A stretch of DNA of 56,899 nucleotides, filler included, from Jimgerdemannia flammicorona (lineage: Eukaryota): assembly GCA_003990765.1 (NCBI GenBank). It is 3 parts of 3 records of this genome, joined end to end, with 100 filler letters (N's around TTAATTAATTAA, not from the genome) between each part and the next. Parts side by side here need not be neighbours in the genome. Positions count along the whole stretch, not along the records: positions 1 to 18,903 come from RBNJ01002077.1; positions 19,004 to 37,901 come from RBNJ01002078.1; positions 38,002 to 56,899 come from RBNJ01002079.1. One strand, written 5' to 3'. The stretch's first letter is position 1. Every line of letters starts with the position of its first letter. Both the position numbers and the translations under genes were made by a program. The notes under the pieces were generated by a model. It was not told the DNA's origin. It saw nothing but the letters and a program-made list of their open reading frames with translations, and did no database searches. Positions 2,953-45,431 of the stretch are shown piece after piece.

Positions 2953-3438
2953 AATACCATTGCCCTCAATATTACCAGCACTATATAATAAGCCATAGAA
3001 AGACAGTGGTGTTTCACTGTGCTACTAACTATAGAGGAATTCTTCAATAGTATCCAAAGTATAGTGCAGATATACTTGTTACAAATTTCACATTTCAAGG
3101 TCTATCAGAACTGAACTGAGTTTCAGGAATATATCAAGTTTGGGCAGCTACTCTACTCAAAGTCAGAATTAGAAAAAGAAGATTGGATCATAGAGTGTTA
3201 GCTCTTCTATACTCAGATTACTATTACTAAAAAAGTGTATAAGTTATTCAGAGAAGATAAAACAGCTCTAGTTCATTTTTAAGGAGTAGCTCTAGGAGAC
3301 TTTAGATATATCAAGAGATAGTACTAAGAGAATATAATGGTACAAATTGTACAGCACAAAGAGATTCAATTGATCAAGGTTTGAGAGTTTGGATAGAATA
3401 TTTTAGAGATAAATTACCTATTCATGAGAATGTTATAA
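2953..3438 (+). pseudogene. Family D 3' accessory ORF of unknown function (decayed)
   Basis: One frame directly after integrase: NITSTI**AIERQWCFTVL...QEYIKFGQLLYS...QITITKKVYKLFREDKTALVHF*GV; similar to accessory ORFs in families A, B, E and F. Confidence 0.6.
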
Positions 3439-3880
3439 CAGTTAATCTGAATTAGAAATATAAATCAGAAGAATAGACATTTAATTATGATATCTAAATC
3501 CAATTCTCAAATATAGCTTAGCCATATAAATAGCAGTCATATTTTGCAAATATGGAAAACTTTAGCAACTACTAAAGATTCTGCAGATATTAAAAAGATT
3601 CAATACTTATAAAAAATAACTTACAGAAAACATAGTCATAACTTAGCCACCTTATAACTAACAAACTTGTATAAATATCTCCAATATCTAGAGTGAATAA
3701 ACCTCAGGTTGAAATAGTTAAAAAATAAAGAGAAAGTAAGAGAACTAGTAAGTCTGTAGAGAGATATACTTCAAACTCATCTACTCCTACATTCTGAGAA
3801 CTCTGTAGAGTCAAAGAAGATCAGTTTTCAAGATATAGAAATCTGACATACTTATATAGTTATATATCTATTATATTACT
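3431..3880 (+). repeat. Probable 3' LTR of family D (right boundary approximate)
   Basis: Starts TGTTA after the accessory ORF; homologous in reverse orientation to about 49165-49617; contains TATAAATA...GAGTGAATAAACCTCAG. Confidence 0.55.
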
Positions 3881-4255
3881 TTAGTTATTTTACTACTTAT
3901 ATAATTACTAAAAAAGAGATATTGAAGGACTATTTTTATATATTTTATAATCTATCATTATATTTATTAAATTATATTCAGAATCTTATATTTTATTTAT
4001 AGAAAATACTTTTTAGAGAAATATTCTTATAAAAAATATTCTTTGAGCAATTTCTTGAACTATGTAACAAATCTATTATAGTGTTTAAATTAGTAATCTA
4101 TCTTATAGATAAGACTAAAACAGATAATACTAATAAGATAATAGTATTATAGAGACTCTTATAAGATTATTATATAGTAGTCTATGAGATTTAAGATAAT
4201 GAAAATGATAGAAGTCAAAATATAATAAAACTATATATTAATAGAATTAATATAT

Positions 4256-5532
4256 TGTAATGTGCCTGGCTCAATAGAGGTATATTATAAGATTGAGGAT
4301 TGATATAGTTTGGCTTGAGCCACTAGTTACTTTGTTAAAAGCAATAAAATGTTCTTGGTGTTTAGTAGTATAATAGTCAAAACTAGATATCTGTGAGCAA
4401 TTTGTGTGTTAATTTCCTTATTGGGATGGTTCTCTGAGTATAGTACTGATTTGTGTGTATATGGTATAGCAATCTTCAAAAGTGTGTGATTTCTGCATGA
4501 TGATCTTATGTAGTGTAGCAGGTTTCTTATACAATTTCTGCATGATGATCTTGTGTAGCTCAATGATCTCTAAAAGTATGTAATTTCTGGTATAATAATC
4601 TTGGTAGACTTCTTCTCAATTTGGTGTGGATTCTCCTAAATTGGTAGACTTCTTGAATGTCACAGATTCTTCTGAATTGGCTCACTGAGAATTGTACTAG
4701 TGGCAGGTTCTCTGAATTGGGCTCACTGGGAATAAACTAATTACTCAGATAGTATGGATAACTCAGATGTCACAGATTCTTCCTGAATTAGTGATTTACT
4801 AGAAATGAAGGATGGTGCAGATTTTTTTTGAATTAGTGACTTACTGGGAATAATAACTGATGGTAGATAACTCAATAATTCAGATTCTTGACAAAGTTAT
4901 ATCAAAGACTGACTTCATTTGTGCAAATGGATTACTGCAAAGTTGTATCAAGAGACTGGCTTATGGCAAGATTCCTTAAGGTGGGCTCTCTGGGAATGCA
5001 GATAACTTAGAAAAGGCAGTGAAGTTCTTCCTTGAACTTGGGCAGCAAACTCAGCTTATCTGGCAAGTGAACCAAAAATAGACTTGTTCTTTGTATCAGA
5101 AAGTAGACCAGAGTGGGAAAAGGTAAAGCTCACAATCTCCTAGCAGTGGCTATAGAGTGGGCATTTCTCTTAAGTATTACAATCCTTTCTGGATCAAGTG
5201 GCTTTTGGCAGACATATCTCTTGAAGTGTAATAGGCAGACTTGTCTTTTGCTTTGAATTTGGACTTTTCAGACTGAGGTTTATTCACTCTTGTCTCTGGG
5301 GTATTTTATATATTGTAATTACTATCTGGTTGCTATATGGCTAACTATAGATTTGCTACTTATGGCAAGTATACTGGTTCAGCACAGATGTGCAGGTCCT
5401 ATACAGATATATCTTATCTGGTAGTCTGGCTATTTATACAGTTTTCTGCAGCAATGGTTGCTGTGTCTGATTACTATAATTCATATCATCTGGCTAAGTT
5501 ATAATTCAGGTGGTATGTTTTGGTTTGTCACA
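4256..5532 (-). repeat. 3' LTR of A1
   Basis: Termini TGTAATG...TGTCACA on +; aligns with 13070-14421 and with 50161-51219 (reverse); internal imperfect tandem repeats at about 4480-4850. Confidence 0.92.
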
Positions 5533-5546
5533 TCAGCCCCCACTAA
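5533..5546 (-). promoter_or_regulatory. Polypurine-tract-like site of A1
   Basis: Minus strand TTTAGTGGGGGCTGA immediately precedes the TG of the 3' LTR. Confidence 0.65.
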
Positions 5547-5585
5547 AGGATGGCCTGTCCTCAGACTGTTCTTTAGTCATCATTT

Positions 5586-6060
5586 CAGTGTGGGTAAGTA
5601 TCTTCTGCATCAATACCTGTTTCATCATCTTCATCATCTGTGCCATAGTTGCTCTATTCCAAGAGTTCTTCTTCTTCTTCTGGGAATAGAATTTCAACAG
5701 CATTGATAATGCTCAGGTAGGTGGCCAGATTCATTCTTCATATGTCACACCAGGGGAATTGTGCTTGTAATAAGGCTGCAGGGTTACATTTATAAAGAGT
5801 GTAGAGCCTATCTGCAGCAGTGACATCTCTTCTTAATAGTCCTGTAGTATTTCTGATATATGTTTATTCTGAGGCTAGAAGGTTCTGCAATTGTTCTCCA
5901 ATTGCATAGTGGGTCTGAAGTTGATGGATCTGTAACAATCATATAATCAGGACAAGATTCTCTTGATAAATCTGAATTCTCTGAAGAGTATTCCCATTGA
6001 CTTCTTAGAATTGGGATAGGGGAACTGGTAGTGATGTAGTTGTCAACTCTCTGATTTATA
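5586..6060 (-). pseudogene. Family A 3' accessory ORF of unknown function (decayed)
   Basis: Single frame after the integrase end: ...QIHQLQTHYAIGEQLQNLL...RRDVTAADRLYTLYKCNPAALLQA...RMNLATYLSII...EEEEELLE*SNYGTDDEDDE; the internal stops are TAA/TAG/TGA, each one C>T change from CAA/CAG/CGA. Confidence 0.6.
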
Positions 6061-8420
6061 ATATAGGAAAAGATATATCTTAAGGCAATTAATATGTACT
6101 GTTGTCCTCAGGGTTCATCCATCAATACCTCTTAAATAGATACTGATTCCTCTAATGTTGTACACAAGATAAGATCCTTTCCATTTGGGCTCTAATTTGG
6201 CAGCAAAGTTTATTTCAATCATACTTCTCCAAACTAGTACTTGATCTCTAATCTTGATCTTCTGGTTCTTCTGTTTCTGGTTATAGTACTTCTTTTGTCT
6301 TTCTTAGGCTTTGGTACTCTGAACTTGGGCCTGATTACATAACTGTTCTGCCTTCTTGAGAAGGTCTCTAAGATTCGTAAGATCAGTAGTTCTGGTTTTC
6401 TTAGCAAACATCATTTCAAATAACTTTTGTTTGGTGGAGGTAGCAGGGGTGTTCTGAATTTCCCATAGAATCTCAGATAAGCAGAGGTCTCAGTTGATAG
6501 AATTGACTCAGGCAAGTTCTTTCTTGATGGTTTAGTTTATTCTTTCTGTCATACCATTAGTCTGAGAGTGATATGATATGGTCTGTTTGAGGTGGATCTT
6601 GTGAATTTGGGTATAACTTGTAATTATGTTGTTGACAAATTCTGTGCCTTGGTCAGAGATAAGTTCTTCTGGGGGTCCATATCTGAGTAAGAGTCCATGG
6701 AGAAGATCTACAATAGTTAAGGCATCTGCGATTTCCATTGAGAAAGCCTTGGGCCACTTAGTCAGATGTTCTACAAATATAAGGATATATTTGTTTCTTC
6801 TTAGTATAACTGGTAGGGGTCTGATTACATCTACTCCCTATCTGTGAAAGATATTGTCTAGTGGTATAATTAGTTATAGTGGTACTTGGTAGTTCTTTCT
6901 TCCTTGGTACTTCTGGTAGGTATCACACTTCTTAAGTATGTCCCAGACTTGTGTTCTGAGATTGGGCCAATATTGGTGTGTTATTTGCAACTTTTCTTCT
7001 ATGTTTGCTTGTCCTTGGTGGGCTTTCTGATGTTCTTTCCAGATGAGATCTTCTTGTGCCTTAATGGTCTGAGAACCTTCCTTTAGGGTATAGTTTCTTG
7101 GGACAACCTTCTTCTAGTTTATTGGGGCTGGTGGGAAAGTATATTAATATTGTTATGGACTTTCTCTACTTTGTGGATGATGGTGATTTTGTAATCCTGA
7201 AGGATAAGGATCCAGTAGGCTAGAATTCTGGTGGGTTCCTTATGATTGAATAGCTATTTGAGGGCTACATGGTCTGTAATCAGGGTAAACCTTTTTCTGA
7301 TGAAGTAATACTTAAACAGAGTAACTGCTCATATGACTGTAAGGCATTTCAGTTTGGTGCTACCATAGTTCATCTGCTGCTGATTGGTAGCTTGGCTTAC
7401 ATAAGCTATTATATAGTATTGTTGGTCAGATTCTTCTTGGGCTAGAACTACTCCTAGGCCATCTTTGGAAGCATCTATATATAAGATGAATGACTTCTGT
7501 AGATTGGAGCACACAAGGATTAGTGCTATGGTCATGTGGTTTTTGAGTTCTTTGAAGTGATTTTGTCCATTTATAAGGTACTCCTTTCTTGAGAAGAACT
7601 TGGATTGAGACAGCAATTTGGGCAAAGTCCTTGTTAAACCTTCTGTAGTAAGATACTAGCATTAGGAATGATAGTGTTTCCTTCAGAGTCTTGGGTACTG
7701 GCCAATTGTTGATCTTCTCAGTTTTCTTTAGGTCTGCATGGATTCCTTCTTTTGAAACTATGAATCTAAGGAATTCAAGTTTCTATTTCCCAAAGTAGTA
7801 TTTCTTTGCATTGAGTCTCAGATGGTTCTTGCAGGTGAGCTTGAAGAATTCCTCCAAGTGGTGCAGGTGTTCTTCAAAGTTTGCTGAATAGATATTGGAA
7901 TCATCCATATATACAATCAGGTAGTAGTAGATTAAGGGGGTATAGACTGAATTCATCATCCTCTGAAAGATGGGGGGTATATTACAAAGTCCAAAGGGCA
8001 TTTGGAGGTATTCAAACAGTTTTCCTAGAGTAAGGAAGGCTGTCTTTTGAATGTCTTTGGGGTCTATAGAGATCTTATAGAATTCTGCAAAAAGGTCCAT
8101 ACTGCTGAAGTATCTGGTATCTTACAACTGATCCAAAAGGTCATTGATTCTAGGCAAAGAATAGGCATTCTTTTCAGTGACTGAATTGAGTTTCCTGTAA
8201 TCTACATAGTCTCCATCCTTCTTTCTTTGGTACAATAAGTATAGGGCTGGCCCTGGGGCTAATAGAGAGTTGGATGACTCCATTGTCTAAGAGTTCTTAA
8301 ATGCACTCCTTTTTGAATGTTTTTAAGTAGTGGGGTATACTATAGGGTTTCTGCCAAATGGGTGTTGTATTTTCTATATTTATACTATAGTGATATAATG
8401 GGTTGTATGGCAGATTTCCA
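6043..8420 (-). pseudogene. pol: A1 reverse transcriptase, RNase H and integrase (pseudogenised)
   Basis: KTAFLT..MPFGLCN..FQRMMN..YMDD (7783-8100); LYIDASKDGLG (7329-7625); ISDQGTEF..QTNGMTERIN (6532-6738); C-terminal TLRTTVHINCLKIY; no chromodomain seen. Confidence 0.93.
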
Positions 8421-8934
8421 TAATCAGTAGTGAAGATATCTTGATATTTGTTGAGGAGTTCTACTAGTTGTTGCTATTGTTGGAATATTAATTCTTCTCC
8501 AATTTTAGTGGAAGGCTTCACTGTCTCCTGGGTCACAGTGGAGCCTTTCCTTTTTTCTGGGACCTTTTGCCATTTCCCAATAAGTTTAGTTCATAAATTT
8601 CTCTATGAGTTCAGTTGAGAAAAGGCACCAGATGTCCTATGATAGTTCCTTTTGGCAAGATGATAGTTTCCCAACTTTGGTTGGTTGCTTGGGAATGTAC
8701 TGGGTTCATCTTATCAGGGAATGTGTGTCCTTCTATATCCAGGTATGGGATATCTTCATTGAGTTCAAAGAAAAGATTTCTGGGGTCGGGTGGTGCAAAG
8801 ATGTCAAAGGTGGTTTGTTCTCCAGGCTCCAGGATGAGATTCTTGTGCAGTTTGACTGATTGGTAGTATACCTTCTGGGGGATATTCTTCTTGAGGTGGT
8901 TGACTTGAAGGAGATGTACTTCCTTCTCGTCTGA

Positions 8935-9345
8935 ACTTCCAAATCCTTTGACTTGTCTTGTTCCTTCAGTCAATTCAGAGACTTCTTGTAATTGTGAGTT
9001 CTTGACCTTCATGAAGACTGCTTGAGCAATCTTCTGTCCTCTAATGATTTGGTGCCATTCTGTACTATTGTTGTATAGGATGATCTTGATTTCACCTGTG
9101 TATTCTGGGTCAATAGTTCCTCTTTCTACAGTTATTCCCTGTCTGGTAAGTCCAGACCTTGAGATTAGTTAGATGTAAGCTCCTTGGGGTGGCTGTATGG
9201 CTAGTCTGGTTCTGATCATGAATGTTTTTCCAGGCTTTATAGATTCATCTTCCTGACTGTGAAGATCATATCCTATATCTTCTGAGTGTACTTTGGTTGG
9301 GGGTTTGGCCTTGGGATGTAGTAGGGCATACTGGGCAACATCCTT
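8935..9345 (-). pseudogene. dut: dUTPase domain within A1 pol (between protease and RT)
   Basis: All five trimeric dUTPase motifs in one frame: IGYDL, SRSGL, GTIDPEYTGEI, KIAQ, RQVKGFGSS; one in-frame stop. Confidence 0.9.
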
Positions 9346-10679
9346 ACTGAGTTTGGGCTATCCTTGGGCTGAGGTTCTGCTAGCAGAGAGCCTCCAGGCT
9401 CTGAGATTGAGGTGTGGCTATCTGGCTACAGTAGAGGGGTCTCAGAGATAGTTGATTCCTCTTCTTTCTATAGGGTCCAGGGCTTCCATGAAGTTGGTGG
9501 CATCCTCTATCTATCTTTGGCAGAATGTATGTCTGATGAGAGCTAAGATGTCTTCTTCTAGATCATAGATCTTGAGAATCCTTCTTCCTGGCTTCTTGGT
9601 CTGGCTTTTCCAGATCTGACCTCTGTTATCTCCTCTCTTCAAGGTATAGATTGCAACATCATGAGTAAGGTGAATCTTCTGATGTTTGCAGTCTTGGTAG
9701 TCTGAGTGTCTTCTATGATTACAATATTCCATTACTTGGAAATAATATTCCTGGTTATTGATTTCTTGTTGTCTTGGGAATTGGTATCCATCTTGGTCAT
9801 AAGTTGGGGGAAGAGTAGATAAGGGGTATATTTCTATTTAGGTGAAGAGACCTTGTCCTCTGAATTGACTTTGCAACTTGGTGGTAACTTCTTAGAAGGT
9901 AGTGATAGTACAACTGTATTTGGGGGTTCTGGTCTCTGGAGTCTCTGTCTCTCCTATTAGTCTAGTAGATGACACTGATAGCAGTAGTCTTGGAGAGAGT
10001 GGAAAACCATTTGGTATGAACATCTGCCTAGCCAAAATGCCGTCTCTTGGTAAGTTTCTTTCTTGGGAATAATGGAGATTGTGCTGGGTCCTTCTTCTAT
10101 ATTCCAAGGATCATTGTCTTCAGATGGTATCCAGTGAGAGTCATCCTAGGGAATAAGTTCAGGGATCTCTTCTCCTTCAGATACTTCTTGTTCAGAAACT
10201 TCTTGGTCAGGAGCTTCTTCTTCCTCAAATGATTCTTGATCCCAAATTGCTTGTACTTCTGCAGCTTCAGCTGCAGGTGTTTCTGGAACATATCTGCATT
10301 TCTTCTTCTTCTTTCTGCACTCTGGGCAGGCTGTGCCAGTCGAATTCCTTGTTTCAATAATCTTGGAGGAGTGCTCAGGGCACTTGTGTCTCTTGAGGCA
10401 GGTAGGGCATCCTTTGATTTCTCCTGCAATGGCTCCAATAGTAATGGGGATGGTATTCTTGACCTATACATTGTATTCTGGCCTATCATTCACTAGGTTG
10501 ATCTGGGGATTAAGTCTGGGATCATTTCCATCTTTGGATTCTTCTTCCTCTTCTATAATAGATTCTTTGCTACTGATATATTCTTCCTAGATAGTGATCT
10601 TCTTCTTCTTCTTTGATTACTCATAGCTGGTCACCTTAATGTACTTCTTGCCTTGATAGTCAAACTTGAGTACTTATTG

Positions 10680-10960
10680 ACCAATATCAACAACTGCATT
10701 CATTTCCTTCATCCAGTTGGTGCCAAGAATCATGTTATAGATGATAGCTTCAGTGACAACAGCTTTCAGGATGGAGAATTGAATGTGTCCAAGAGAGATA
10801 GTGATGTTTTGTACTTCTCCAAGGGGTTGAGTTTGGGCTCCATCTGCTACTATGATGCTGAGGTTGGATGGTCCATCAATGGGCCATTGGAGGGTATCCA
10901 GGAATCATTTGGCAATAACACAGATAGCTGCTCTTATATCTATGAGGATTTTCACCTTTT
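10680..10960 (-). pseudogene. A1 retropepsin-type aspartic protease
   Basis: ILIDIRAAICVI (decayed D[TS]GA motif)...IIVADGAQTQPLGEV...MILGTNWM. Confidence 0.75.
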
Positions 10961-11589
10961 GTCCTCTAATATCTCTATATAAATAGGTGCTGACATGTCT
11001 TTCTGCAGCCTGAATAGGTGTGGGGGCTAGCTCTTGCTGTGGGATGAGAACTTTGCCAGTGCTAGACCTAGTGGTTCTCAGTAATTTATTTCAGACTCCA
11101 GCTAGTATTAGTTGCAGAAACTGCAGAAGGGGAATCTCAATCTTGACTTCTTGAATCTTCTGCCAGGCTTTTTTGTAGATATCTCTAGGCATGGTCTTTG
11201 GGGTATACTTCTTTTTAGGCTTTAGAGTAGCAGGCTCTCATTCTTCTTATTCCATTTCTTCATCTTCTGGTGGCAACTCATTTATCTCAGGAACAAAAGG
11301 TGAGAGAGTCTGGAGAGGTGTTTCTACTTGCTTCTCTTTATGCTCTTCATCTTCTTTCTGAATAATTCTTCTGCTAATATTCCTGGATGGCCTTCTTATG
11401 GGTCTCTTCTACTTCTCTGCTGGGTAGACTATTTTTCAGGTAGTAACCTTGATAGGGTACAAGTCTAGATCACTGTAGTCTTCACTGTTGCTTGCTTCCT
11501 CAAAATCTTCAACAGGATGAGCTTCAGTCTTCTTGTACTGAGTGTCATTCCTTCAGTTTGATGGTTCTGAGTCCCTTCAGTTACTTCTT

Positions 11590-12502
11590 TTACTATTATA
11601 TTTAGTGATATAGTGTCCAAATTATCTATAGTGAAAGCATTGGACTTGGGCTCTGTCTCAGACAGGGTATCTTCTTTCTTCTTACTGATAGTTTCTGTTA
11701 TCTCTTGGTGGGTAACCTTGGCTTCTTTGTGGAGAGTATCCTCTATTATGTATCTTGATAACTCCAGTTTTCATATATGGTAAGTTTTTCAATCTATCCA
11801 ACCAATTGGTCTAACTTGGAGCTGAGGTCTTGGATTTCACTTCTATTCTTCTTTCCTTCTTTAGCTGGCCTTCTTTCTTCAGATCTCTCTTATCCTTAGA
11901 GGAGTCCTTGTAGGGCTTTGACCAGGATGTCTTTCTTATCATCCTTCTTATCATAGTCACTCTAGGTAGTCTCTTATCTGACATCAAAGAATCCTTGGAC
12001 TACATCAATTGCTCTTCAGACCTTCTTATGCTTAGGGTGCAGACATGCTGAGTAATGTTTAGGAGAATCCTATTTATGAATATCATTAGACCTATGATGT
12101 TCTGATTGGTGGCATTGAACCCAGTGATATGCATTCTCTTCTGGATTCTTGTAAAGAAGGCTCTGGGTGATTCTCCAAGATTCATCTTCATCTCCATGAT
12201 AGATTCTTGAGCCTTGTGGTGGGTTTCATTTTCTGCATATTTTTTGATGAGCCAGTGGACCATAGCTATATATTCTAGCTCATAAGATGCTGCTGCTTAT
12301 TTCTGTCTTGCCAGTTCTGAATGTGGATCATTTACTATTTGGTGGAAATTCCTCTAACTGGTTCTCTGAGCTGGACCTTATAGATAGTGATTTTTCTTTT
12401 ATCTGAGAGATTTCTCAGGGCTGCAATTTCTTCCATTCTATCAAGGAATTCTCTGGGGTCTTTCTCCAGATATCTTGCAAAAGTTGGCAGTGAGGTGGTC
12501 AT
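11590..12502 (-). pseudogene. gag: A1 gag (capsid-like region and CCHC knuckle remnant)
   Basis: MTTSLPTF..DPREFLDRMEEIA, MKMNLGESPRAFFTRI (major-homology-like region), QCFHYR*FGHYITKY at about 11600-11650. Confidence 0.75.
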
Positions 12503-13049
12503 TTCATTGTCACTTTCTTCTGATTCTAGTTCTGGTCTGGATTCTGATTCAGATTCTGACTCTAATTTGCTTTCCAAACTATCACTAGAGATGGGAGTGC
12601 TTGGATATCTTGAGAATAGTGTTCTGAATCTTAGATGAAGTGGAATGAGCCTAGGTATTCTTGTAGAAGCTACTTCCAATTCTGTGAGAGCTGGTGATAA
12701 AGATTCAATAAGTGAGATTGGTGGAACTAGTATGGAGTATCTGGCTGTAAGATCTCAGGCTTGTATAATAGGATCTTCTAGTTCTTATACAAGTTCTTCA
12801 AGTTGTCCAGCAGGGCTACCTGTATTGTCTAGTTGATCTGCTTGGAGATCTCTGGCTATATTGGCTTCTGGTTCTGGTTGGAATCCTTCTGATACTGGGT
12901 AGTTAGTAAGTCTTAAGGTGATTACTTCTCTTCCTGTAGATGCTGGTGATAACTGGTTCTTCTATAGTGGCAGAGATTGGTGTTGTATCAAATGTATCCA
13001 ATTTGACTATGGGTTCTTGTGAGCTGAAAAGTCATATTGATTTGAAATC

Positions 13050-13069
13050 TTCTCAGTTAAGCTCCCAAA
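13050..13069 (-). promoter_or_regulatory. Primer-binding site of A1, tRNA-Pro-like
   Basis: Minus strand TTTGGGAGCTTAACTGAGAA follows the 5' LTR; A2 has TTTGAAGGCTCAACTGAGAA; the two combine to TGGGGGCTCAACTGAGAA, resembling the tRNA-Pro PBS TGGGGGCTCGTCCGGGA. Confidence 0.6.
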
Positions 13070-14421
13070 TATAATATGCCTGGCTCAACAGAGGCAAATT
13101 ACAAGATTGGGAATTGATGTAGTTTAGCTGAGCCCCCAGTTACTTTGTTAAAAGCAACAAAATGTTCTTAGTATTTAGTAGTATAATAGTCAAAACTGGA
13201 TATCTGTAAGTGATTTGTATCTCAATTTCCTTATTGGGATGGTTCTCTGAGTGTAGCAGTGATTTGTATATATGTAGTGTAATAATCTCCAAAAGTGTGT
13301 GATTTCTATGTAATGATCTTATGTAGTGCAGTGGATTCTTTATACAATTTCTGTATGACAATCTTGTGTAGTGTGATGATCTCCAAAAGTATGTGATTTC
13401 TGGTATGATAATCTTGGTAGACTTCTTCCCAATTTGGTGCAGATTCTCCTAAATCAGTTGATTTCTTGAATGTTATGGATTCTTCTGATTGGCTCACTGA
13501 GAATTATACTAGTAGTGAGTTCTCTGAATTGAGCTCACTGGAAACAAACTAATAACTCAGATGGCATGGATAACTTAGATATTGCAGATTCTTTCTGAAT
13601 CAATAATTTACTGAGAATAGAAGATAGTACAGATTTTTTCTAAATCAGCAGCTTATTTGGAATAATAACTAGTGGCAGATAACTTAATAATTCAGGTTCT
13701 TGGCAAAGTTACATTAAAGACTGGCTTCATTTGCATCTGTGAAGTTGTATCAAGAGACTGGTTTATAGTAAGGTTTCTTAAGGTGGGCTCTCTAAGAATG
13801 CAGATAACTTGAAAATGGTGGCAAAGTTCTTCTTTGAACTTGGGCAGCAAACTTGGCTTATCTGGCAAGTGAACTAAAAACAGACTCATTCTTTGTATTG
13901 AAAAGTAGACTGGAGTGAGAAAAGGTAAAGCTTACAATTTCCTAGCAGTAGCTGTAGAGTGGGTATTTCTCCTAAGTATTGTAATCCTTCTTAGATTAAG
14001 TGGCTTTTGGCAGATATATTCCTTGAAGTATGTATAATAGGCAGACTTGTCTTTTGCTTTGAATTTGGACTTTTCAAACTAAGGTTTATTCACTCTTATC
14101 TCTAAGGTATTTTATATATTATGGTTGCTATCTGGTTGCTATGTGGCTAACTATAGATTTGCTACTTATGGTAAGTGTGCTGGTTCAGTACAGGTGTACA
14201 GGTCTAGCACAAGTATACAGGTCCTACACAGATATACCTTATCTAGTAGTCTGGCTATTTATACAGTTTTCCATAGTAATAATTTCTGTGTCTAATTATT
14301 ATACTATATGTTCATATCATCTAGCTAAGTTACTAATTGTTTATACCATCTGGCTAAGATGCTAATTATTCATGTCATCTGGCTAAGTTATAATTTGGGT
14401 GATATATTTTGTTTTATTACA
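13070..14421 (-). repeat. 5' LTR of A1
   Basis: Aligns with 4256-5532; terminal TG decayed to TA (TATAATATGCC vs TGTAATGTGCC). Confidence 0.92.
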
Positions 14422-14929
14422 ATATTATAGATAATCAGAACTAACTATTGGCTCTAAGTTCTAAGTGCTAAGTTTCAATTATTTATAGTAATAGTATAGT
14501 CTAAGTATTACTTTTAAATTCTTATACTGATAGTTGTGCCATACTTATATTCTAAGTTGATCAGACTCAGAATTATTAATAAGTTAGATCTGAGAGTTCT
14601 GTAATAAAAATACTACTTTATTTTTACATTTAAGAAAAGTAGGGCTGAGGTTATAATATACTCAGTATAGAGAGTATTTATATAAATTTAAAGCTATAAC
14701 TAATATAGTATATTGGTTATATCTATATATAATTATACTATATTTAGTATCTATAACTACTAGTTGAAAATTTTATAGAAATTTCTATAGAAATTTTCAT
14801 TAGAAATTCTAATAGCTTATAAACATACAATAAGTCATTAAATCCTACTCTTCTTTATCTAAATCTACTCATTGGATTTAGTACTAAACTCTAGATATTT
14901 ATTAAACTGAAGAGCAGTATACTAGACTA

Positions 14930-15275: not shown

Positions 15276-15399
15276 GTTTGTTCTTAGTGTTTTTACTAAT
15301 TACTTATATTGTAATAGAGTTATTTATACTTCTCTTTATTAAAGGTATTTAGAAATATATCTGTCTTTCAGAAATTCTATCAGAATTTTCATTATACTA

Positions 15400-34833: not shown

Positions 34834-37189
34834 ATTTGTGTGTTTGGAAGTTGTGGTTGTTGTTTGTTTTGGTTCTCCGATTTGACGCATCTCGGTACTT
34901 GGTATATATACATTTGGTCCTGATTGGTAAGATTCTGTTTGTGTAAATCTTGTGTTCTGTGACTTTGTATTGACTCAGCTTTGTGTGCTGTGACTTCAGT
35001 TTGACTCAGCTTCATGATCAAGCAGGTGATTTCCAGATTTGTTCAGAGCTCGTGTGTGATTTCAGTGGCTTGTTCAGAGGGTGATGTGTAATTTCAGTGG
35101 CTTGGAGGTTGTGCACTTACATAGGTTTATTTATTATTTATGATATTACTATACTAGGAGTAGTTATAAAGAGATATTATGAAGAAGTATTTAGAAGTTG
35201 TGTTTGGATTGTTCAAGTCTGTAATTCTGAGGTCTGGGGAAGGAGATATTTATACTAATAGGAGGCTATCTAGACTATGCTAAATATAGATATAGTACTT
35301 AGTACTTTGTTGAGTCAAAATGCAGTTATATTATAAATGTGAACTGACATATCAAGAGATCATCTGACTGCTGAGTTAGTTTACAATTACTAACTACTAA
35401 GCTATCTATAGATTTAGATGCTATCTGGATAGTCTTTAATAATATTACCTTTGATGATATTATCTCTGATAATATCTGAGCAGTTTTCTGACTTCTGATA
35501 TCATCAGTTTCAAAGATGTTGTCACATCTGTCTCTTGCAAAACTAAAGCTATTCTTGATGGTAATAGTTATATAAGAATAACAGATCTTAGTTCTCTTTT
35601 TTTTTAGACTATTGGTATATTTGCAAGAACTGGCTATTCTTATCTAGAGCAAGAGCTCTTATTATCATAGCTGGGGGTTTGAACCTCTTGGAAATGATAT
35701 TTTCTATAATCCAAGATAATTTCTAGTAGCAATATCTGTCATATAGATAGACTTGAGATTGGTTTCAATAATGTTGGCTTTCTTGAGTTTAGATAAAGCA
35801 TCTGTCATTCTCCAATAGAGGTGATACAGATAGAGTGAATAGAGTTATTCAAATATATTTTGCTTTTGCTAAGTAATAAGGTCTTATATAGTTGCAGTAT
35901 ATCTTAGTCTTGAGTTAATAAGTACAGTTTATGAACCTTTAGTAGATGAGATAGGTTCTTCTTATTTCAGTTTGAGTTTAGTACTTCAGTTTTCTTTTGT
36001 AATAGTATAGTATATCAAAACTAGTTATAGAGATTTAGGGTCAGTTTAATGATTATAGTACTTCTTCTGATATTCTTATATCTTAGCAGTAAGTCCTTAT
36101 ACTTACTGGTATATTTTGTATAACCAGGTGATCTCTTTAGTAACTTGTTTTGTAATCTTGCATGTAGTTTCTAAATTAGTTCTGAGGGTAATATGTGATT
36201 TTGGTGGCTTAGAGGCTGTGTACTTACAACTCTCCCCTTTTTAGCTTTCAATATCCTCATCAAGATCTTCTAATTTGATCTAGTGTTATTATATCATTTA
36301 GATAGTTCTTGTAGCTATATTTATTGAGGATTTGTTCAACTTTGTATTCTTTCTAGTTATTAATAATGATAGGTATAGATAGTATTGTAGTTTAGTTCAG
36401 GAATATGTCTCAGAATTTCTAAAGTAAGGGTCTGATATAGCTATCAACTTTGGAAAAGTCTTCTTTGAGGTTTTCTGGTTCTTCTTTGAATAGTTGGATA
36501 GAGATAGCAAAGAAAGGGCATTTCTTAGCCAATTTCTTGAGTTATAACTTATTGATGTGGGTGATCTTTGGTCCAGAATTGCTAGAACTGAGTGGGTTTT
36601 TTTCACCTTATAGTTTGAAATTGTGGCATCTCTTCTTGATAGTCAGGAAATGGTTTACCCAATTGATTATAGAGTTTTCTTATTTTAACCATGGGATCCT
36701 AAGGATGATTTTATTGTCAGAAAGTGATACAATTTGAAGTGTAACATATACTTAGTAGTCATCAATTCAGAAGGGTAAGTTGTAGACTTTCTTATTAATA
36801 ACATGTGAGATTCCATCAGCTATGGTAACTGCTTGAGTCTATTGTACTGGAGAGGTCAGGACCTTGAGTCTATTGGCTATTTCTTTATTGATAAAGTTGC
36901 CTGAGATACTACTGTCTATCATAATCTTAATAGGTGCTTAATTGATAAAAGCTTGTAGTATAAGAAGTTTGTCTGATTTGATAGTAGTAATTTCAGTTAT
37001 AAGAGCTTTCCTTCTATTGGTTCTTCTTTGGATCAGTTCATTGATATAAGAGAAGCAATCATCAATCATTTAAGAAGAGTACATTCCAATACTATATGGG
37101 TATCAGCCATTTGGTACAAATCCATCTTTAATTTTCTTATAGAATTATTTTTCTTTACTTATAGTAGATTGGGCTAGAGCTTTATTTGA

Positions 37190-37600
37190 TAAGTTAAATC
37201 CTCTAAATTCTTAGATGGTAGGCAGTAGTTTAGGGACTTCCTTGACTATCAGAGTTGATTCAATTTTCTTAAATAGGATCTAGGCAATACAGAAACCAAT
37301 AGAGATCTTGAAGGGTGTCCAACTATAGTTTCAGATGAGACAATGATTTTACCTGTATAATCCTCATCAATGACTCCTCCTTCTACTGAGAGTTCTTTTA
37401 ATACTAGGTTGCTGTGACAGTATATTTTTTCAACATATTCTTCAGGAATTTAAATGCTGATTCCTGTATAGACTTGCTTAACTTCTCAGTTGGAAACTAT
37501 AGCTTCTTCAGCTATATATAGGTCATATCTAGCTGCCTTTTGACTTTCTTTGGTTGGGGCCTTGGCAGTTGGTCTTAACTTGACAAAGTTCAGTGTTTTG
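37190..37600 (-). pseudogene. dut: Decayed dUTPase of B3
   Basis: Aligns with 30620-31040; EGGVIDEDYTG retained. Confidence 0.8.
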
Positions 37601-37682
37601 GTGGTTAGATTGTTGAGGTAGTATAGAGTGGTAATGGTTGCTTATATTGCTGTTTGGGGTTTTCAGTTGGGGCAGGTACTGA

Positions 37683-37901
37683 TAGTGCTCCGAACGAGTC
37701 AATCCGGATGGGATTCGGATGGATTCGAATTGGATTCGAATCAGATTCGAATCGGATTCGAATCCCATCCGGATGGATTCGAATCAACCATTGTTTTGAT
37801 TTCCAAATTAGACAATTAAATGTTTACATCAATAACTTGATGAATAATCATCCAAATTTGATGATCTTGGTGTCATTTGAAAGCCCTTAATAAGGCCTTT
37901 C
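37683..37901. mobile_element. hAT-type MITE, left part (young, CpG-rich), cut by contig end
   Basis: Starts TAGTGCTCCGAACGAGTC like the TIRs at 51349 and 54609; GATTCGAATC repeats; interrupts the B3 knuckle-dUTPase junction. Confidence 0.75.
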
Positions 37902-38001: not shown

Positions 38002-41000
38002 CCCCCCTACCCCTTCTCGATAAAACACCACTCTATCGACTACAATTCCCACCCTCCCACTACTCTGTTTGCATATCCTTATCACCAAACCATGCCACCA
38101 CCCCCCTGAGGGACCCCAACCTATCCACCATCCAGTCAACAGATCCCCCAACAGCTCCTCCCACCTTACAACCTTCTTCTGTAGGCTCATCTGCTGCCCC
38201 TCCTCAAACACAAATAGCCAATGTCCCGCCAGACTCACCCAAACTGCTAACACCCACCTGATAGTGAGCCAACTATCACCCACCCCCCCTACCAGCCAAG
38301 ATCTCAAGTCCTCCCAGCAATCCCTTTCACCCACTGGCCTGCGCTCTATACCCAGTCTATTCTCTATTTCAACCCAAAAGTCCCCCAAAACCTCACACTC
38401 CCCCAGCCAATGTTCCGGCATCTGCACCAAACCCCCAACTTGTCCTACATTGTAACACTCCTCACAATCAAAACAGCCACCATCCACCAGATGCCTGGTG
38501 CAGAAATTTAGCATGACGTTCCTCCATAGCATTCGCCATCACACCATCCAGAACTTGGAGGGAAGCCACCACCTCACCTCAGTGCTCTAAGCCCAGAGAT
38601 ACCAGCCCAGTCCCACTCCTTGCCAATCCTGACTACCTGCCAACTGCTTGGCCAAAGGTCTTGGCCAAGACTCCGCTGACACTCTACTCCATCCCCAATA
38701 TCAAAAGTAACAAGTGGAGTATCCCCCAGAAGTAGTCTATCCCATTGCCACATATGAGGACTCCACAACACCTCCCCCTCATTGCCTTGCCAGCGCAGAC
38801 CAATCTGGTGTGCTCCATCGACCACTCTCCACCAAAAGCCCTTAAACCACAGCCACCGAATTCTATTAAGCCCTACCAAAGAGAGTAGATCTCCTGAGGA
38901 CCCTCGGGGGGAGGTTCTCATCTCCCACACCTTCTGCATCAGAAGTACCCAACCCCCTCCTTGTAGTTCAGCTGCTCTCTTCAGCCACCAGGCTCGCAAG
39001 CAGTGCAACCTCTTAGGGAAATCCACAAGGCCAAGACCTCTCCTGTCCACTGGCATTGCAAGAGCATCCCAACAGATCTGGGACCTCCTCCCTGCCCAAA
39101 TCCAATCCCTAGCCGCCTTCATCAGCCTCTTTACTACCCAAGCTGGGAAGTCTAAGTGATATGCTACATACCACAGCTTAGGAAACCAGTATGTATTCAG
39201 AATTGATACCCGCCCTGCTAGAGAGATATGGCAGCCTCCCCAACCTCGAAAAACCTCCCCCCAAATAGCCACCCTGCTCTCTCACCATACTCATGGCAAG
39301 ACAGAACTATATATAGAGAGGAAGATGCTCAGATAATGTACCATCTCACCAGTAGGGACAATTGTTCCAATGATGTCCCCACCCACCAGTCCATTCCCTA
39401 GCACCATGGTCTCACACTTATGCTAGTTGAGCTTTGCCCCAGAGTGAACCTCATACCATTCCACTGTCTCCTGAAGTACCTTGACATCTGTCACAGACCC
39501 AAGGCCAACCACTATATCATCTGTAAAGGCCCCCACCTTCCATACTATACTATAGATAGAGAGCCCCACCACCTTCTGGTGAATCCTATCCATTAACGGT
39601 TCCAATAAGAGAGCATAAAGAATAGGGGACAAGGGGTCCCCCTGAGGAACCCCTCTCCTCAAGGTAAATACCTGACCATGGTGACTATTACACAATAGTA
39701 CTGCCCAACTACCCTTGAGAAGATTCACTATAGAAGCCCGAAATCCAGGAGGAACACTAATACAACCCAACACCTTGCTCAGCCAAACCCACCAGACCCA
39801 GTCATAGGCCTTCTCCTGATCCAAAAAGACCAACTTCCCATCCAGGCTACAGGCCTGGGCCCCTTCAATGACACCATACACCCAAGCAGTCCCATCTCTA
39901 ATAAGTCTTCCTCCAACAAAGCCCTGCTGTTCCTCCCCCAGAACCTGTTGGGTAACCTTCTACAGCCTTGCAACAACTACCTTAGTTACCATCTTCCTGT
40001 CCATATCCAAGAGCATGATTGGCCACCAGTTCTTCCAGTCTTCTCTTCTTCCCTTGTCTTTGTACAATAAAGCCACTAGCCCAAGGTCCTGCTCCCCAAC
40101 CCATTCACCACTCTGAAGAATATGATCACAGAGAGCAGTCATCTCCCCCAGAATGCTGGAGACCTTGACCATCTTCTTCCAGAAGTCCCATGGTAGTCCA
40201 TCCTCCCCAGATGCTGTTCCAGTTTTTGTTGCCACAAGGACACTCTGGACTTCCTCACCTCACACCAGCAAGGCCAAGTCATCCAGTCCAGCCACTTGTA
40301 GTGGCCTCTATTCTCCTAATGCCTCTTCAATAGCTACCTCATCAGCACCCCCTTCATCCTCACTCTACAAATCCTGTCATCTCTCTTTCAAAACCCCTAG
40401 AATTTGTTGTGTGCCATGCACTATGTCCCCATCAGCATCGAGGACATCATCCCACCAATGTCTCACCCTCTATGCATTGAGCAGATAGGATAAATATCTA
40501 GTAGGCCACTCACTCTCCTCAAGCCCCTGCCACCTTAGCCTAGCAGCCATACCTTATATATGCACCTCCTCCTCTTCTCTCAGCACCTGTTGTAGTTCCA
40601 ATATCTCCAATCTCACCCACACCAACCTTCAATCCTCCACCCCATCAGAAGTAAGCAAACCAGCTCAATCCATCTGCAATCTCCACAGCCTGCTGGAAGC
40701 ACACCTTGTGTGCTTCCTCCTTCTTCTCCCAGCTTCTCTCCCGGTCTCTCCCCAATAGACCCTTGTAGCCTCTTTCAATCTCATCCCTGAACACCCACTG
40801 ACAAACCCTCATACTGCCAGCATGAAACTTTTGCCTAAATGTCCTCTACCTAAGAATCCCACAACCCCTTCTCAGCTAGTAGGGAGGAGTTGAGGCGCCA
40901 ATGTCCAGGTCCATCTCCACTCCCCCCAAACTGCCCCTGTCCCAACAATCTCCAGTGATCAGACCATAGGCACCATTCCATCTCCAATACCTTCCAGACA

Positions 41001-41636
41001 TCTGACCCCCAGCATTCTGCTGTCAGAATCCAGTCAATCCTTATATCCAAGCCATTCACCCAATGTGTATAGACCCTAGAGTCACTCTACCACATTCTAC
41101 CCATATCCCCTAAGAAGCTCAACCTCTCCACCTCCTCCCATGCATCCAGGCCTCCACTTCTCCCTCCTGCACTCCTCCCACTATCAGTGCGGTCCAGACA
41201 CTGATCCTGAACCATATTAAAGTCTCCCCCCAATCACATCGACCCCTTCTGCCAAGAGAACACCCTCCTCTAGCAGCTCTTCAATCCAAGCAATCCTCTC
41301 ACCCCTAACCACAGAGTAGTAGCAAGAGCTAACCCTCACTGACTCCCACCCTGGCCACTGCCAATTACCCCAGACCAAACAGTCACCCCAGCTCCTGATT
41401 CCCTCCAAGTCACCTCTACCCTTCCTCACCAGAATCACCACTTTTTCAAACCAAGCAGATGCCCCGCCCCATTCCATAGTCCACCTCGCCCAATCATCCT
41501 CATCCTCACACTGCACATCCTGTAGTAAAAAGAGATCAGCCTCCAATCCCTTGAGCCAAGTAAAAATGTTCTTATGCTGTCCAGACCCCCTCAGCCCATT
41601 CACATTCAAAGAGAAAATATTTGTTGTACTGTTCAT
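38002..41636 (-). pseudogene. L3 ORF2: APE endonuclease, non-LTR RT, CCHC knuckle
   Basis: FSLNVNGL, LLQDV, RIDWIL, SDH (APE); LDQEKAYD, GVPQGDPLSPILY, AFTDD (RT); GRVSILNTYWFPKLWY; CEEC..PEHWLGEC. Confidence 0.92.
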
Positions 41637-41689
41637 AAGGAATAATGTAAGAAAGTATTCCCATCCTCTACAAGTCTACATTCATCTCC

Positions 41690-43707
41690 TTCTGCACCAA
41701 GTCCAATTCACATTCAGCAGCTAGTTCCCTTTCCCCAGCATCCTGTACCTCTAATCCTCCCAGGAGTTCTACCATTGCCTCATCTTCCCTCTCCTCAAAT
41801 TCCTCTCAATACTCCAGACAGGCCTCCCTCCAGAGCTGCAAACCATGCTGCTCAGCCCAGCAGTATATTGCCTGCTCACCTGCAGCCACCACCAGCTCCA
41901 CCTTCTTCACCTCATCAACCTCATATCTCTCCTCCTTTAAGAGGATTGCAAAAATCTCCCCCTTCAGTGCCTCCACTACTCTCTCACTATGCAGAATCCT
42001 CTCCCAGTGCTCCTCAGGCATAACCCACAGGTCCACTTCTCCCAATGCATCAGCCACAAGGTTATCCATCACCTTGCTCATCCACAGCAAGTTTCTTACC
42101 TCCTTCTCTTCAGGAGTCTCTGGCCGTCCTGCATCCAACATCGTGGTATCAGTACCCACACTGGCAGCCTCATCCCACTCCTCCTCAGGGACATCCACCA
42201 GCTCATTCTCACCAGCTGCCACCACTTGTCTCCCTTTCGCCACATCAGGGACCCCAAAACACACTTACTGGGCCCCCTTCATCAGCACATCCTCTGATGC
42301 CCTTCTCTTCACAGCTGGGCCCCTCCTGATCAGAGGGGGGGGGGTGGAGTCCAATTCTAGCTCCCAGACCTCAAAGGTACCATTGGCAAAAGGGTCCTTG
42401 CTCAGAACCTTCCCATCTCCTTTCTTGTCTACCTCCACCTCCCCTACCCTATTACTAGCCCAGACACTGGCCTTGATGCCCCCAGACACCTCAGCCCCAA
42501 CTGCCTTCTTCTTCGCCTCAGCTGTCATACTTGCCAGTAGCTCTCTCTGCCTCCTACGCCTCTGTGCCTGCTCCCACTGCCCTTTGTCCATGCGGATTCA
42601 CTTCCCCTCCACAACCTCCAGATGTGTCGACTCCTCATACATCTTCCAGGCCCTCGCCCTCCTCTCCACAGCTCCACTCATCTCCTCCAGTGCCTCCAAC
42701 AAGTCCTTCTCCTCCTCCTCACTCCCCTTCACCCTCAATACCTTACAGTTGAATGCCCCCCACATTAGCACAGAAGGCCAGTCACTTGCCTTCCCCATGG
42801 CCTCCTTTCCTGCCAGCCAAATCCTGATGTCAATGTCACCCGTCCTGATCATTGTTCCCTCCCACACTTGAAAGCTGATGTCCACCACATCACCATACTC
42901 AATCATCACCTCCTTCACCTACTTCCTAGTCTCCTCCTTGGTCACCATGGGCACCCCCTTCACCAGAAGCTGCACCACTCTAGGGTCCTATCACAAGCAC
43001 TGCACCATGGAGACTACTACCTCCCCAACCACAACTCCAGTCTTCAGTGCCTCATCCAGTGGACTGGTCTCCTCAAATCCCACCTTGACTCCCTCCAGAC
43101 CCTTCAAGAACTTCACTGAGGCTGCCCCAGCTACCTGCTTCGAGACAAGCTCCAGGACTATCCTCGCCGTCACCACTAAGCCCTGGAAGTACAAGGTCAC
43201 TGCAAACTCTGAGATCGACTTCTTGAGCAATGGGGTCACTGCCAGCCCTGTTACACCATCCGCCAGGTCTCCCTTCCACATCAGAAACCCCTGCCCCCCC
43301 TGGCCATCAGCTGTCATATCTTCTTTTTTTTCCTGATTCCCCATCACACTTCCATCAACAGTCACACCCCCAGCCACAGTACCTCCAGCCCCTACACCTG
43401 CACTCCCAGCTGAAGCACCACCCCCCCTTCCAAGGCTTGCCTTGCCTTTCCCCTCAGCAGCACCAGCCCTATTACCAGCTAGCCACTCACTCCTCTTAAC
43501 CTTGTCGGCAAAGCTCAGGAGACCAAATCTTCCCCTATTGCCACCAGACACTGGTCCCCCTCCAGAGCCTTCTCCATTCTTCAGCCTGCCGAAAGCCCCC
43601 ATCCCCAGGCCATAACCCCTTCCCACCTGCTGCCAGTTGAAGGCCCTAGATCTATCTGATCTAGTACATGCACCTGTATGATCATTGCTCTCCATGTTGC
43701 TAGTCAC
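41690..43707 (-). pseudogene. L3 ORF1 (Gly-rich N-terminus, RRM-like core, acidic C-terminus)
   Basis: In-frame pieces 42991-43707, 42598-42918, 42265-42591, 41806-42264; VQLLVKGVP..YGDVVDI..RTGD motif typical of L1/Tx1 ORF1. Confidence 0.75.
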
Positions 43708-43768
43708 CTTTCACCAAAATGTTGTCGAAAGTATTGTCTGAGTCTTGTGTCACCTGAATGTTACTGGT

Positions 43769-44826
43769 GTCTTCCTCACTCCCCTTCACCCTCAAAACCT
43801 TACAGATGAATGCCCCCCACATCAGCACAGAAGGCCAGTCACTTGCCTTCCCCATGGCCTCCTTGCCTGCCAGCTGAATCCTGACATCAATGTTATCCAT
43901 CCTGATCATTGTCTCCTCCCATATCTGAAAGCTGATGTCTACCATATCACCATACTTAACCATCACCTCCTCTATCCTCTTCCTAGTCTCCTCCTTAGTC
44001 ACCATGGGCACCCCCTTCACCAGAAGCTGCACCACCCTGAGATCTCATTGCAGGCACTGCACCATAGGGACTACTACCTTCCCAACCATGACTCCAGTCT
44101 TCAGTGCCTCATCCAGTAGGCCTGCCTCCTCAAAGCCCACCTTGACCCCCTCCAGATCCTTCAAGAACTTCACTGAGGCCACTTCAGCCACCTGCTTCGA
44201 AATAAGCCCCAGAACCATCCTCACTGTCACTACCAAGCCCCAGAAGCATAAGGTTACCGCAAACTCTAAAATCAACTTCTTGAGCAACGGAGTCACTGCC
44301 AGCCCCATTACACCATCCACCAGATCCCCCTTCCACATTGGGAGCCCCTGCCCCATCTGGCCATCAGCCATCACATCTCTTTTTTTTTCCTGATTTCCTA
44401 TCACACTCCCATCAACAGTCACACCTCCAGCCACAGCACCTCCAGCCCCTATGCCTGCACTTTCAGCTAGAGCACCACCCCCTCTCCTAAGGCTTACCTT
44501 GCCCTTCCCCTCAGCAGCACCAGCCCTAGTACCAGCCAGCCACCCACTCCCCTTAACCTTGTCTGCGAAACTCAAGAGACCAGATCTTCCCCCATAGCCA
44601 TCAGACACCAGTTCCCCTCCAGAACCTTCTCCACTCTTTGGCCCTCCGAAGGCCCCCATCCCTAGGCCATAACCCCTCCCCACCTGCTGCCAGTTAAAGG
44701 CCCTAGGTCTATCTGACCTAGTATGTATACCTGTATATTCATCGCTTTCCATGTTACTAGTCACCTTTCACCAAAAACATTGTTGAAAGTGTTGCCTGAG
44801 TCTTGTGTTACCCGAATGTTACCAGT
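43769..44826 (-). mobile_element. LINE copy L4: 5' UTR and ORF1 N-terminal half, abutted or interrupted by L3
   Basis: ORF 44045-44764 is a close paralogue of 42991-43707; same 5' UTR. Confidence 0.88.
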
Positions 44827-45431
44827 AAAAGGTGTTGACCATAGTGCATGCCTGAAGATCTGATGGATCTTAGCTGTCCTTGTTTTACGTATATCCATGG
44901 GAGTGGCATCTTATAGCTCTTGAGTACTGGCCTGTGGGAACTCCTAGCAGAGAAGGTTTCCTATTTCATACTCCTGCCACATTTAGAGGCATTTGGTGAC
45001 AATAGTGATCCTTGTTTCCATTTCATGGTGGTAGAGGATATAATGATAAGGGTCACTAGTACCCAGGTTAACACTAGGAGTCCTTCTTGAGTGGGTCCTC
45101 ATAGCTCTTCTGATGTCTTGGAATATCCTTTCTTTAACTGAGGTGCCTTGGTGGTTCCTTGACCTTGAGGTTTGGTGAGCAGCAGACATTTCATTTGTAG
45201 TAAGTCTTTGAGCTATTTTGGGATTGGTGGGTTTTGTTGGTTACTGCTACTGCAGTTCCTTGATCCTTATTTTATATTTCTCAAGATACTCATACTGTGG
45301 TCACAATGACTCACAATTGGTCATCATTACTCATCTTGTATGCTATATGATCTTCTTGTACTCCAATCTGGTGACTTGTAAGGAAAGACTGTCTCCTGTA
45401 CTGATGTCATCATTCTGAGGTCACCATTATA
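44827..45431 (-). mobile_element. Probable LTR start of a further family (E) carrying an accessory ORF, inserted in element C and interrupted by L4
   Basis: Element C pol breaks at EFIL*T (RNase H start) into TATAATGG (decayed TG.. terminus); ORF 44983-45189 plus continuation resembles the family B LTR ORF. Confidence 0.55.

Follow-up and report, generated by a model that had tools for sequence, protein, structure and literature searches.

An orphan gene inside the long terminal repeat of a Ty3/Gypsy retrotransposon of Jimgerdemannia flammicorona, with candidate relatives in other elements

Introduction

Is one extra gene carried at the 3' ends of several different retrotransposons of a single host? 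The question arises from 56,899 nucleotides of Jimgerdemannia flammicorona DNA (assembly GCA_003990765.1; parts of records RBNJ01002077.1, RBNJ01002078.1 and RBNJ01002079.1, joined end to end), hereafter the window. A first-pass annotation had proposed an unannotated accessory-protein family, recognised by three short blocks in constant order, at the 3' ends of five Ty3/Gypsy long terminal repeat (LTR) retrotransposon families labelled A, B, D, E and F. LTR retrotransposons have few extra genes, most of them unexplained. The analysis below describes an orphan accessory protein of such elements, whose presence is certain in B, probable in E and possible in D and A.

Results

The open reading frame of family B lies within the LTR

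Elements were mapped by self-comparison of the window, Pfam searches of 136 stop-free pieces and tblastn searches in which pol pieces of the window served as queries. Two members of family B, B2 and the partial B1, carried the open reading frame (ORF) in question, with the following features.

24686-26753 and 33059-35121, minus strand: LTRs of element B2, 93% alike; the element has gag, dUTPase, protease, reverse transcriptase (RT), RNase H, integrase and chromodomain
33059-35121, minus strand: 5' LTR of B2, which starts TGTAAG and ends TTACA, then a sequence resembling a primer-binding site, TGGTAACAGTGG
24686-26753, minus strand: 3' LTR of B2, likewise with TGTAAG and TTACA at its ends, and with the purine tract AAGAAGGGGAGAGT before it
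From about 21956, plus strand: 3' LTR of element B1, of which only the right half is present
33739-34833, minus strand: B ORF, copy in the 5' LTR of B2; 365 codons, 2 internal stops
25371-26465, minus strand: B ORF as found in the 3' LTR of B2; 3 internal stops, none shared with the other copies
22195-23277, plus strand: B ORF as found in the 3' LTR of B1; 4 internal stops, likewise private to this copy
34210-34974, minus strand: open 255-codon frame piece that takes in the first 208 codons of the copy at 33739-34833
34905-34910, minus strand: TATATA, about 70 nt upstream of the B ORF start codon; possibly a promoter of its own
33541-33546, minus strand: TATAAA, LTR position 1576, about 190 nt past the ORF stop, in both B2 LTRs
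33418-33423, minus strand: AATAAA, LTR position 1699, in both B2 LTRs

The B LTR was 2.07 kb long and held the whole 365-codon ORF, with the ATG at LTR position 289 and the stop near 1386. The location inside the LTR, already proposed for this family, was therefore borne out in all three copies. In B2 the chromodomain (26969-27208, minus strand) was followed by the LTR, pol ending about 230 nt before it, and the element was flanked on both sides by a 5-bp target duplication, ACCTA. Among the proposed carriers, B was the only one to combine a sense-strand ORF downstream of integrase or chromodomain with LTRs and a target duplication. Because the TATAAA and AATAAA motifs come after the ORF, the usual LTR layout would place it in U3, a motif-based assignment that we infer rather than observe.

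The distal part of the B LTR contained repeats of about 393 bp (23569-25085, 33063-33453), present as two direct copies plus an inverted stretch in the B1 LTR and as one copy in the B2 LTRs. A third B-like copy, rearranged, occupied 35122-37901 (minus strand) and ended at an N run; its parts were dUTPase and protease (36845-37680), a chromodomain piece (36302-36409) and LTR pieces, and B2 seems to be inserted into it.

The B ORF is a gene that was under selection

Each of the internal stops in the three 365-codon copies (2, 3 and 4) was private to one copy; a count over 372 codons, which takes in the end of the frame, gives 3 to 8. The other five frames of the region had 8 to 35 stops and the shuffled sequences 17-18 on average, and the best copy had 2 stops in 365 codons compared with 17.8 expected. 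Differences between B1 and the two B2 copies fell mostly at third codon positions (37/23/75 and 39/25/70 at positions 1/2/3). Between the two LTR copies of B2, where the divergence followed insertion, the counts were 27/20/33. The ratio of nonsynonymous to synonymous substitution rates (dN/dS, Nei-Gojobori), a check suggested by the first-pass annotation and carried out for B, was 0.13-0.17 between B1 and B2, compared with about 1.0 in two control frames (0.99 and 1.01). Between the two LTR copies of B2 it was 0.30, showing that C-rich third positions inflate the effect. It is the contrast of 0.13 with 0.30, together with the codon position counts, that indicates purifying selection on the B ORF while the family was active.

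Nearly all differences between the two B2 copies of the ORF (79 of 80) were transitions (C/T 55, G/A 24), a bias that fits cytosine deamination or a process like repeat-induced point mutation (RIP). The AT-rich elements of the window (D, F and 45.5-57 kb) look like older victims of deamination or of such a RIP-like process.

A HMMER search with B against 1.84 billion representative proteins returned three matches, of which two were true. P0001 (128 aa) covers the first 128 residues of B at 86% identity, and P0002 (247 aa) covers the last 247 residues at 64-66% identity and is open throughout; both are fragments of B's own family. The third match, a repetitive bacterial protein, was spurious. 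No relative was found with the B ORF in a protein word-index search, and scans of metagenome loci with alignments of the B N-terminus and C-terminus gave pattern matches among which no relative was confirmed. The B accessory ORF is a real gene within the LTR, and we consider this result solid.

The lack of relatives among known retroelement proteins could also be read as the mark of a host gene fragment captured by transduction and without a role for the element. We regard this as very improbable. The ORF is in all three LTR copies and has the fully open relative P0002, selection was kept while the lineages diverged, and no cellular homologue occurred among the representatives searched.

A second ORF with intact relatives, E, is truncated by a LINE

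The ORF remnant labelled E lies in the following setting.

44830-45189, minus strand: E ORF remnant, which starts at 45189; the first ~120 codons, then cut by the 5' end of a LINE
45190-45439, minus strand: unit upstream of the E ORF, about 250 nt, which starts TGTAG where the neighbouring RNase H breaks off
38002-44834, minus strand: long interspersed nuclear element (LINE), a non-LTR retrotransposon; endonuclease and RT ORF2 at 38002-41700, two 1053-bp tandem 5' units at 42713-44834

Two proteins from the word-index search were intact relatives of E: P0004, 271 aa long and 73% identical, and P0005, 247 aa long and 82% identical. No precomputed Pfam family was assigned to them. The unit at 45190-45439 and the E ORF may together be the first part of an LTR inserted at this place, with the ATG about 251 nt from the TG start; no second copy of the unit, which would prove an LTR, was present in the window. 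Upstream lies an AT-rich Ty3/Gypsy remnant on the minus strand (RT 45583-46082, dUTPase 46706-46849), whose RNase H is broken and which is cut by the E unit. We rejected the idea that E continues this RNase H: the latter breaks at about 45440, where the TG-initial unit begins, and E has relatives of its own. A TATAAAA motif at 45268-45275 (minus strand), about 80 nt upstream of the E ATG, parallels the TATATA of B.

On the other side of E, a nearly open frame of 1332 codons (38002-41999, minus strand) matched RVT_1 (1.1e-24) and, in its N-terminal part, held an endonuclease start with a weak Exo_endo_phos match (E 0.0008). The two 1053-bp units were 86% alike. The 5' end of this element was set near 44834 because another copy, at 16436-18903 (plus strand), begins exactly at the unit start; the base composition also shifts there. 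Endonuclease and RT in one ORF, no LTRs and a copy whose 5' end falls at a unit boundary make the 38-45 kb element a LINE. The first-pass annotation had placed E, like B, at the 3' end of a Ty3/Gypsy element; what stood of this was a real ORF with intact relatives, and the setting did not, its neighbour being a LINE and no integrase lying upstream.

Three copies of one LINE family were seen in the window: 38002-44834 (minus strand), 16436-18903 (plus strand) and 1 to ~1450 (minus strand). Its sense strand was strongly G-rich (GC skew about -0.45 on the plus strand), with an ORF2 translation rich in G, R, W and E, and the 1053-bp 5' units, tandem in the long copy, were reminiscent of tandem promoter monomers.

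B and E resemble each other at the limit of detection

When the B and E families were compared with hhalign, a single collinear alignment of 102 columns was obtained, in which residues 20-124 of E pair with 7-109 of B at 22% identity (P 0.028), and MAFFT independently gave the same alignment at 23-26% identity. In Smith-Waterman comparisons of the intact relatives with shuffles, P0001 and P0005 scored z 4.5 with BLOSUM62 (3 of 2000 shuffles reached the score) and z 6.4 with BLOSUM45 (0 of 2000); P0001 and P0004 scored z 2.7 (36 of 2000) and z 4.4 (5 of 2000), respectively. Of 212 real stop-free pieces of the window, none scored above 58 with BLOSUM45, compared with 88 for P0001-P0005 and 71 for P0001-P0004; with BLOSUM62 the scores were 49 and 40 and the maximum 43. 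Both proteins end in an acidic tail (D+E 19-23%, K+R 4-8%, pI 4.1), and both ORFs begin at a similar distance from the TG start (289 nt in B, about 251 nt in E).

Several results count against a common origin of B and E. The hhalign probability was 1.7%. In direct pairwise tests on the decayed copies of the window, the B-E z was 0.4 or less. The P0001-P0004 BLOSUM62 score of 40 was exceeded by 2 of the 212 unrelated pieces. BLASTP left the N-terminal domains unaligned, its best match (E 1.9) being a short acidic motif in the tails. An alignment of P0004 with an RNase H piece, judged noise for its inconsistent register, reached z 3.5, which shows the chance level among a couple of hundred comparisons. 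As a carrier of E there is no more than a candidate LTR unit. Several profiles and tests were tried, so nominal p-values are optimistic. The B-E signal is thus of the twilight-zone kind. The comparison between families suggested earlier was borne out in part: B and E stood above controls with the intact relatives, and with the window copies they did not.

One explanation of these results is that B and E are unrelated orphan ORFs and that the likeness of D, A and F to them arose by chance, among low-complexity, decayed, AT-rich translations picked by eye. The low hhalign probability and the comparable z of the RNase H alignment suit it. The BLOSUM45 scores above every real piece, the same full-length collinear alignment from two programs, the common layout of N-domain and acidic tail and the similar ATG distances do not. 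On the sequences at hand, we consider homology of B and E likely, though well short of assured; the explanation by unrelated ORFs as a whole, which also has to account for the D, A and F results below, seems to us rather unlikely.

The protein has an acidic tail and no known family

The B protein consists of an N-terminal domain of about 110 residues followed by a long stretch that is very acidic (pI about 4.1) and rich in aromatic residues. At E up to 10, no Pfam family matched P0001, P0002 or any of the E, D, A and F stretches, so the YhcG/DUF1016 family, suggested in the first-pass annotation, found no support. Searches of the PDB by sequence or profile gave chance-level matches only; an aldehyde dehydrogenase matched by the E stretch (E 0.045) was dropped once the true E relatives were found. 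An unannotated accessory ORF at the extreme 3' end, without Pfam or PDB relative, was accordingly confirmed for B, inside its LTR.

No membrane segment or env-like feature was detected in P0001, P0002, P0004 or P0005, in which the maximum 19-residue Kyte-Doolittle mean was 0.12-0.97. With no signal peptide or transmembrane segment by hydropathy (maximum below 1), the proteins did not fit an env-like ORF3. AlphaFold2 models of the B N-domain reached a predicted local distance difference test (pLDDT) score of 52.9 alone and 53.0 with E rows added. Both models look all-helical; since they are of low confidence, the description of the protein as all-helical is weak, and the N-domain can be called helical with low confidence at best. 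Of the soluble, all-helical module with acidic tail that had been proposed, the tail, the absence of a membrane segment and, at low confidence, a helix-predicted N-terminal part held.

A duplicated RNase H as the origin of the domain was considered and rejected: the best alignments were in differing registers with z 3.5 or less, and nothing was obtained with the RNase H of element A. The ESM Atlas offered no convincing neighbour, and its model of P0004 had a pLDDT of 0.35. P0001 and P0004 shared three of the nearest Atlas clusters listed (a 105-aa orphan with 66 members, DUF6192 and Closter_coat); these look like hubs of orphan sequences and were therefore given no weight.

The D stretch may be a third member; A is less clear and F finds no support

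The remaining proposed members lie in or beside three further elements.

Integrase remnant ending near 2940, LTR start at 3434, plus strand: element D, AT-rich
2953-3438, plus strand: stretch past the integrase of D, continuing its frame; the second half of the B+E profile has its match at 3121-3270
4258-5506 and 13072-14338, minus strand: LTRs of element A, 83% alike; the element has gag, protease, dUTPase, RT, RNase H and integrase
5586-6061, minus strand: stretch past the integrase of A, in a different frame from it; weakly matched by the profile at 5786-5977
About 15440-16440, minus strand: integrase and chromodomain-like remnant of element F, more decayed than D
14930-15286, minus strand: F stretch after chromodomain-like sequence; membership without support
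8614-9168, minus strand: dUTPase of element A, between protease and RT
30653-31264, minus strand: dUTPase of element B, before protease

The carriers differ in dUTPase position as had been claimed, the order being protease-dUTPase-RT in A and dUTPase-protease in B. All 14 of the block motifs sought were present on the expected strands and places and the proposed frames were reproduced; ITRKHRELF was intact in one copy only (34540-34566).

A profile was built from B and E without D or A, and the window was scanned with it in all six frames. Its best match outside the two families was D 3121-3270, in the proposed frame and covering blocks 2 and 3 (1.4 bits, E 0.11); the score was reached by 2 of 120 locally shuffled decoy windows and is thus marginally significant. 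The A stretch was the next match in three versions of the profile (-3.4, -2.7 and -2.2 bits). As the score of -2.2 equals in effect the decoy median (-2.15), A is supported by the position of its match only; decoy top-3 matches fell in any of the three tails in 18 of 399 cases. F was never matched, even by a profile to which D and A had been added. In a three-block test, D (55) ranked first and E (52) second in the window, with 0 of 40 decoys reaching 55 and 2 of 40 reaching 52; the blocks had been chosen after the matches were seen.

A number of observations speak against these stretches belonging to the family. Stop densities were near random (D 10 in 162 codons vs 13.7 expected, A 6 in 158 vs 10.3, F 12 in 119 vs 9.4) and do not indicate coding. 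The longest open piece of the A stretch (99 codons, 5811-6107) is in a frame other than the one proposed. Pairwise tests with the window's decayed copies gave z 2.6 or less in all 14 cross-family pairs, and neither a B-alone nor an E-alone profile recovered D, A or F. In an unbiased semi-global scan with the whole domain, which was not significant, E's score was reached by 17 of 25 decoys and D ranked 14th. Scoring tolerant of C>T/G>A decay brought no gain. The word-index search found no relative of the A stretch among longer proteins. With D as the query, phmmer reached B only at E 4, beside an equally good unrelated frame. A weak match to the B blocks in the LTR of A (4421-4624) was dismissed as chance, its frame differing from that of a weak E-profile match there.

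The pairwise, phmmer, whole-domain and three-block results (the last post hoc, with 2 of 40 decoys still at 52) are what would be expected if B and E were unrelated and the other likenesses accidental. That explanation does not account for the two best non-family matches of a profile free of D and A, both of which lie exactly in the tails of these two elements and in sense frames. A narrower alternative concerns D, A and F whatever B and E are: the stretches could be no more than a variable extension at the integrase C-terminus, or non-coding spacer sequence ahead of the polypurine tract. In its favour, D remains in the integrase frame, stops are about as dense as in random sequence, A's longest open piece is in another frame, and A has no relatives among longer proteins and no Pfam match. 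Against it stand the match of the B+E profile to D and the place where the A match falls. Moreover, the stop counts are powerless in D because its integrase frame is itself near random (27 stops in 393 codons vs 34 expected). We consider the alternative possible, if somewhat doubtful.

Contigs of four sequencing runs, compared with 2900-18903, differed from the window mostly by transitions. Summed contig depth in bins was 5.98 for D (neighbours 102) and 16.3 for A (neighbours 140-208). Since contig depth cannot rank parts, these values hint at most at variation of the two stretches among copies. In one metagenome contig, 15310 in the F tail is joined to 3433 at the D LTR start, 16 further letters separating the two; elsewhere, it would seem, a D-type LTR borders on F-like sequence.

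From these comparisons, the D stretch is probably a decayed third member of the family and the A stretch possibly another; on present evidence F falls outside it. All three stretches do lie on the sense strand between integrase (or chromodomain) and LTR, as had been stated, with stop densities near random. For a single family across B, E, D, A and F the results were mixed, with B and E above controls in some tests and weak in BLASTP and hhalign, D at 2 of 120 decoys, A dependent on position and F never found. The figure of five Ty3/Gypsy families was not supported, nothing being found for F and the neighbour of E being a LINE.

Other features of the window

The window is a nest of decayed retrotransposons, with GC from 0.25 to 0.54 and four short N runs. 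At 51979-56874 (plus strand) a decayed, A-like Ty3/Gypsy remnant extends from gag to dUTPase and runs off the window end.

Discussion

A reading that we would give about an even chance is that the Ty3/Gypsy elements of family B, which have a chromodomain and a dUTPase, carry after gag-pol a third gene entirely in the U3-like part of the LTR, that E holds a distant homologue and D probably a decayed one, and that the protein acts on element expression. An ORF in U3 would stand at the 3' end of the genomic RNA. Its translation would come from a subgenomic or LTR-internal transcript, for which the TATATA sequence about 70 nt upstream of the ATG is a candidate. An N-domain for targeting and an acidic tail of the activation type would suit a protein that acts on the element's own expression, and we infer the regulatory function from this layout.

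A wider proposal, that one orphan gene has been kept by or passed between otherwise different LTR lineages of one host, before the LTR or in U3, and serves as transactivator or anti-silencing factor, appears improbable to us. If it were true, solo LTRs would be free-standing genes for the accessory protein. A selected protein gene wholly in the LTR of an env-less retrotransposon would in any case be copied with every LTR and possibly left in solo LTRs. Should the relation of B and E, and perhaps D, be true, it would mean the sharing of a module between lineages, and a tractable candidate would be at hand for a regulator that a transposon encodes to act on its own promoter or on host silencing.

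The nearest analogy is with genes encoded in U3 of retroviruses, which include sag of mouse mammary tumour virus and the 3' part of nef of human immunodeficiency virus. As there, the B coding sequence appears to lie in U3, is duplicated in both LTRs and would be read from the 3' end of the genome. Unlike these genes, to which it shows no sequence relation, the B gene encodes a protein without membrane segment in a retrotransposon without env. Full-text literature searches, and the paper on crapaud, yielded no description of a fungal-type Ty3/Gypsy element whose LTR encloses a whole protein ORF. The novelty of B therefore lies in an ORF wholly inside the LTR and a protein without known relatives; the theme of extra ORFs itself is already known.

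In plants, LTR retrotransposons are described as having additional ORFs (aORFs) in sense orientation, after pol and before the 3' LTR (Vicient and Casacuberta 2020, PMC7264820). By that description, the B ORF is like them in being a sense-strand addition that follows pol, recurs in all or most copies of its family and has an unexplained role; it differs in lying inside the LTR and not before it, in having no env-like features and in its host, which is not a plant. Some fungal chromodomain Gypsy elements are drawn with an 'add. ORF' of unknown function, and their dUTPase is found at varying places (Novikova et al. 2010, PMC2864245). The window shows the same combination of varying dUTPase position and unexplained extra ORF; the 'add. 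ORF' is likened to the B ORF by its description in a figure legend. In bdelloid rotifers, ORF3 types are reported as common to unrelated retroelement lineages (Rodriguez, Kenefick and Arkhipova 2017, PMC5408684). The bdelloid ORF3s in that account are recognisable enzymes, such as GDSL esterase and DEDDy exonuclease, or env-like, whereas the B protein is an orphan. The association of one type of extra ORF with different retroelement lineages is nonetheless the likeness between the two systems, and it provides a precedent for the sharing of such a gene.

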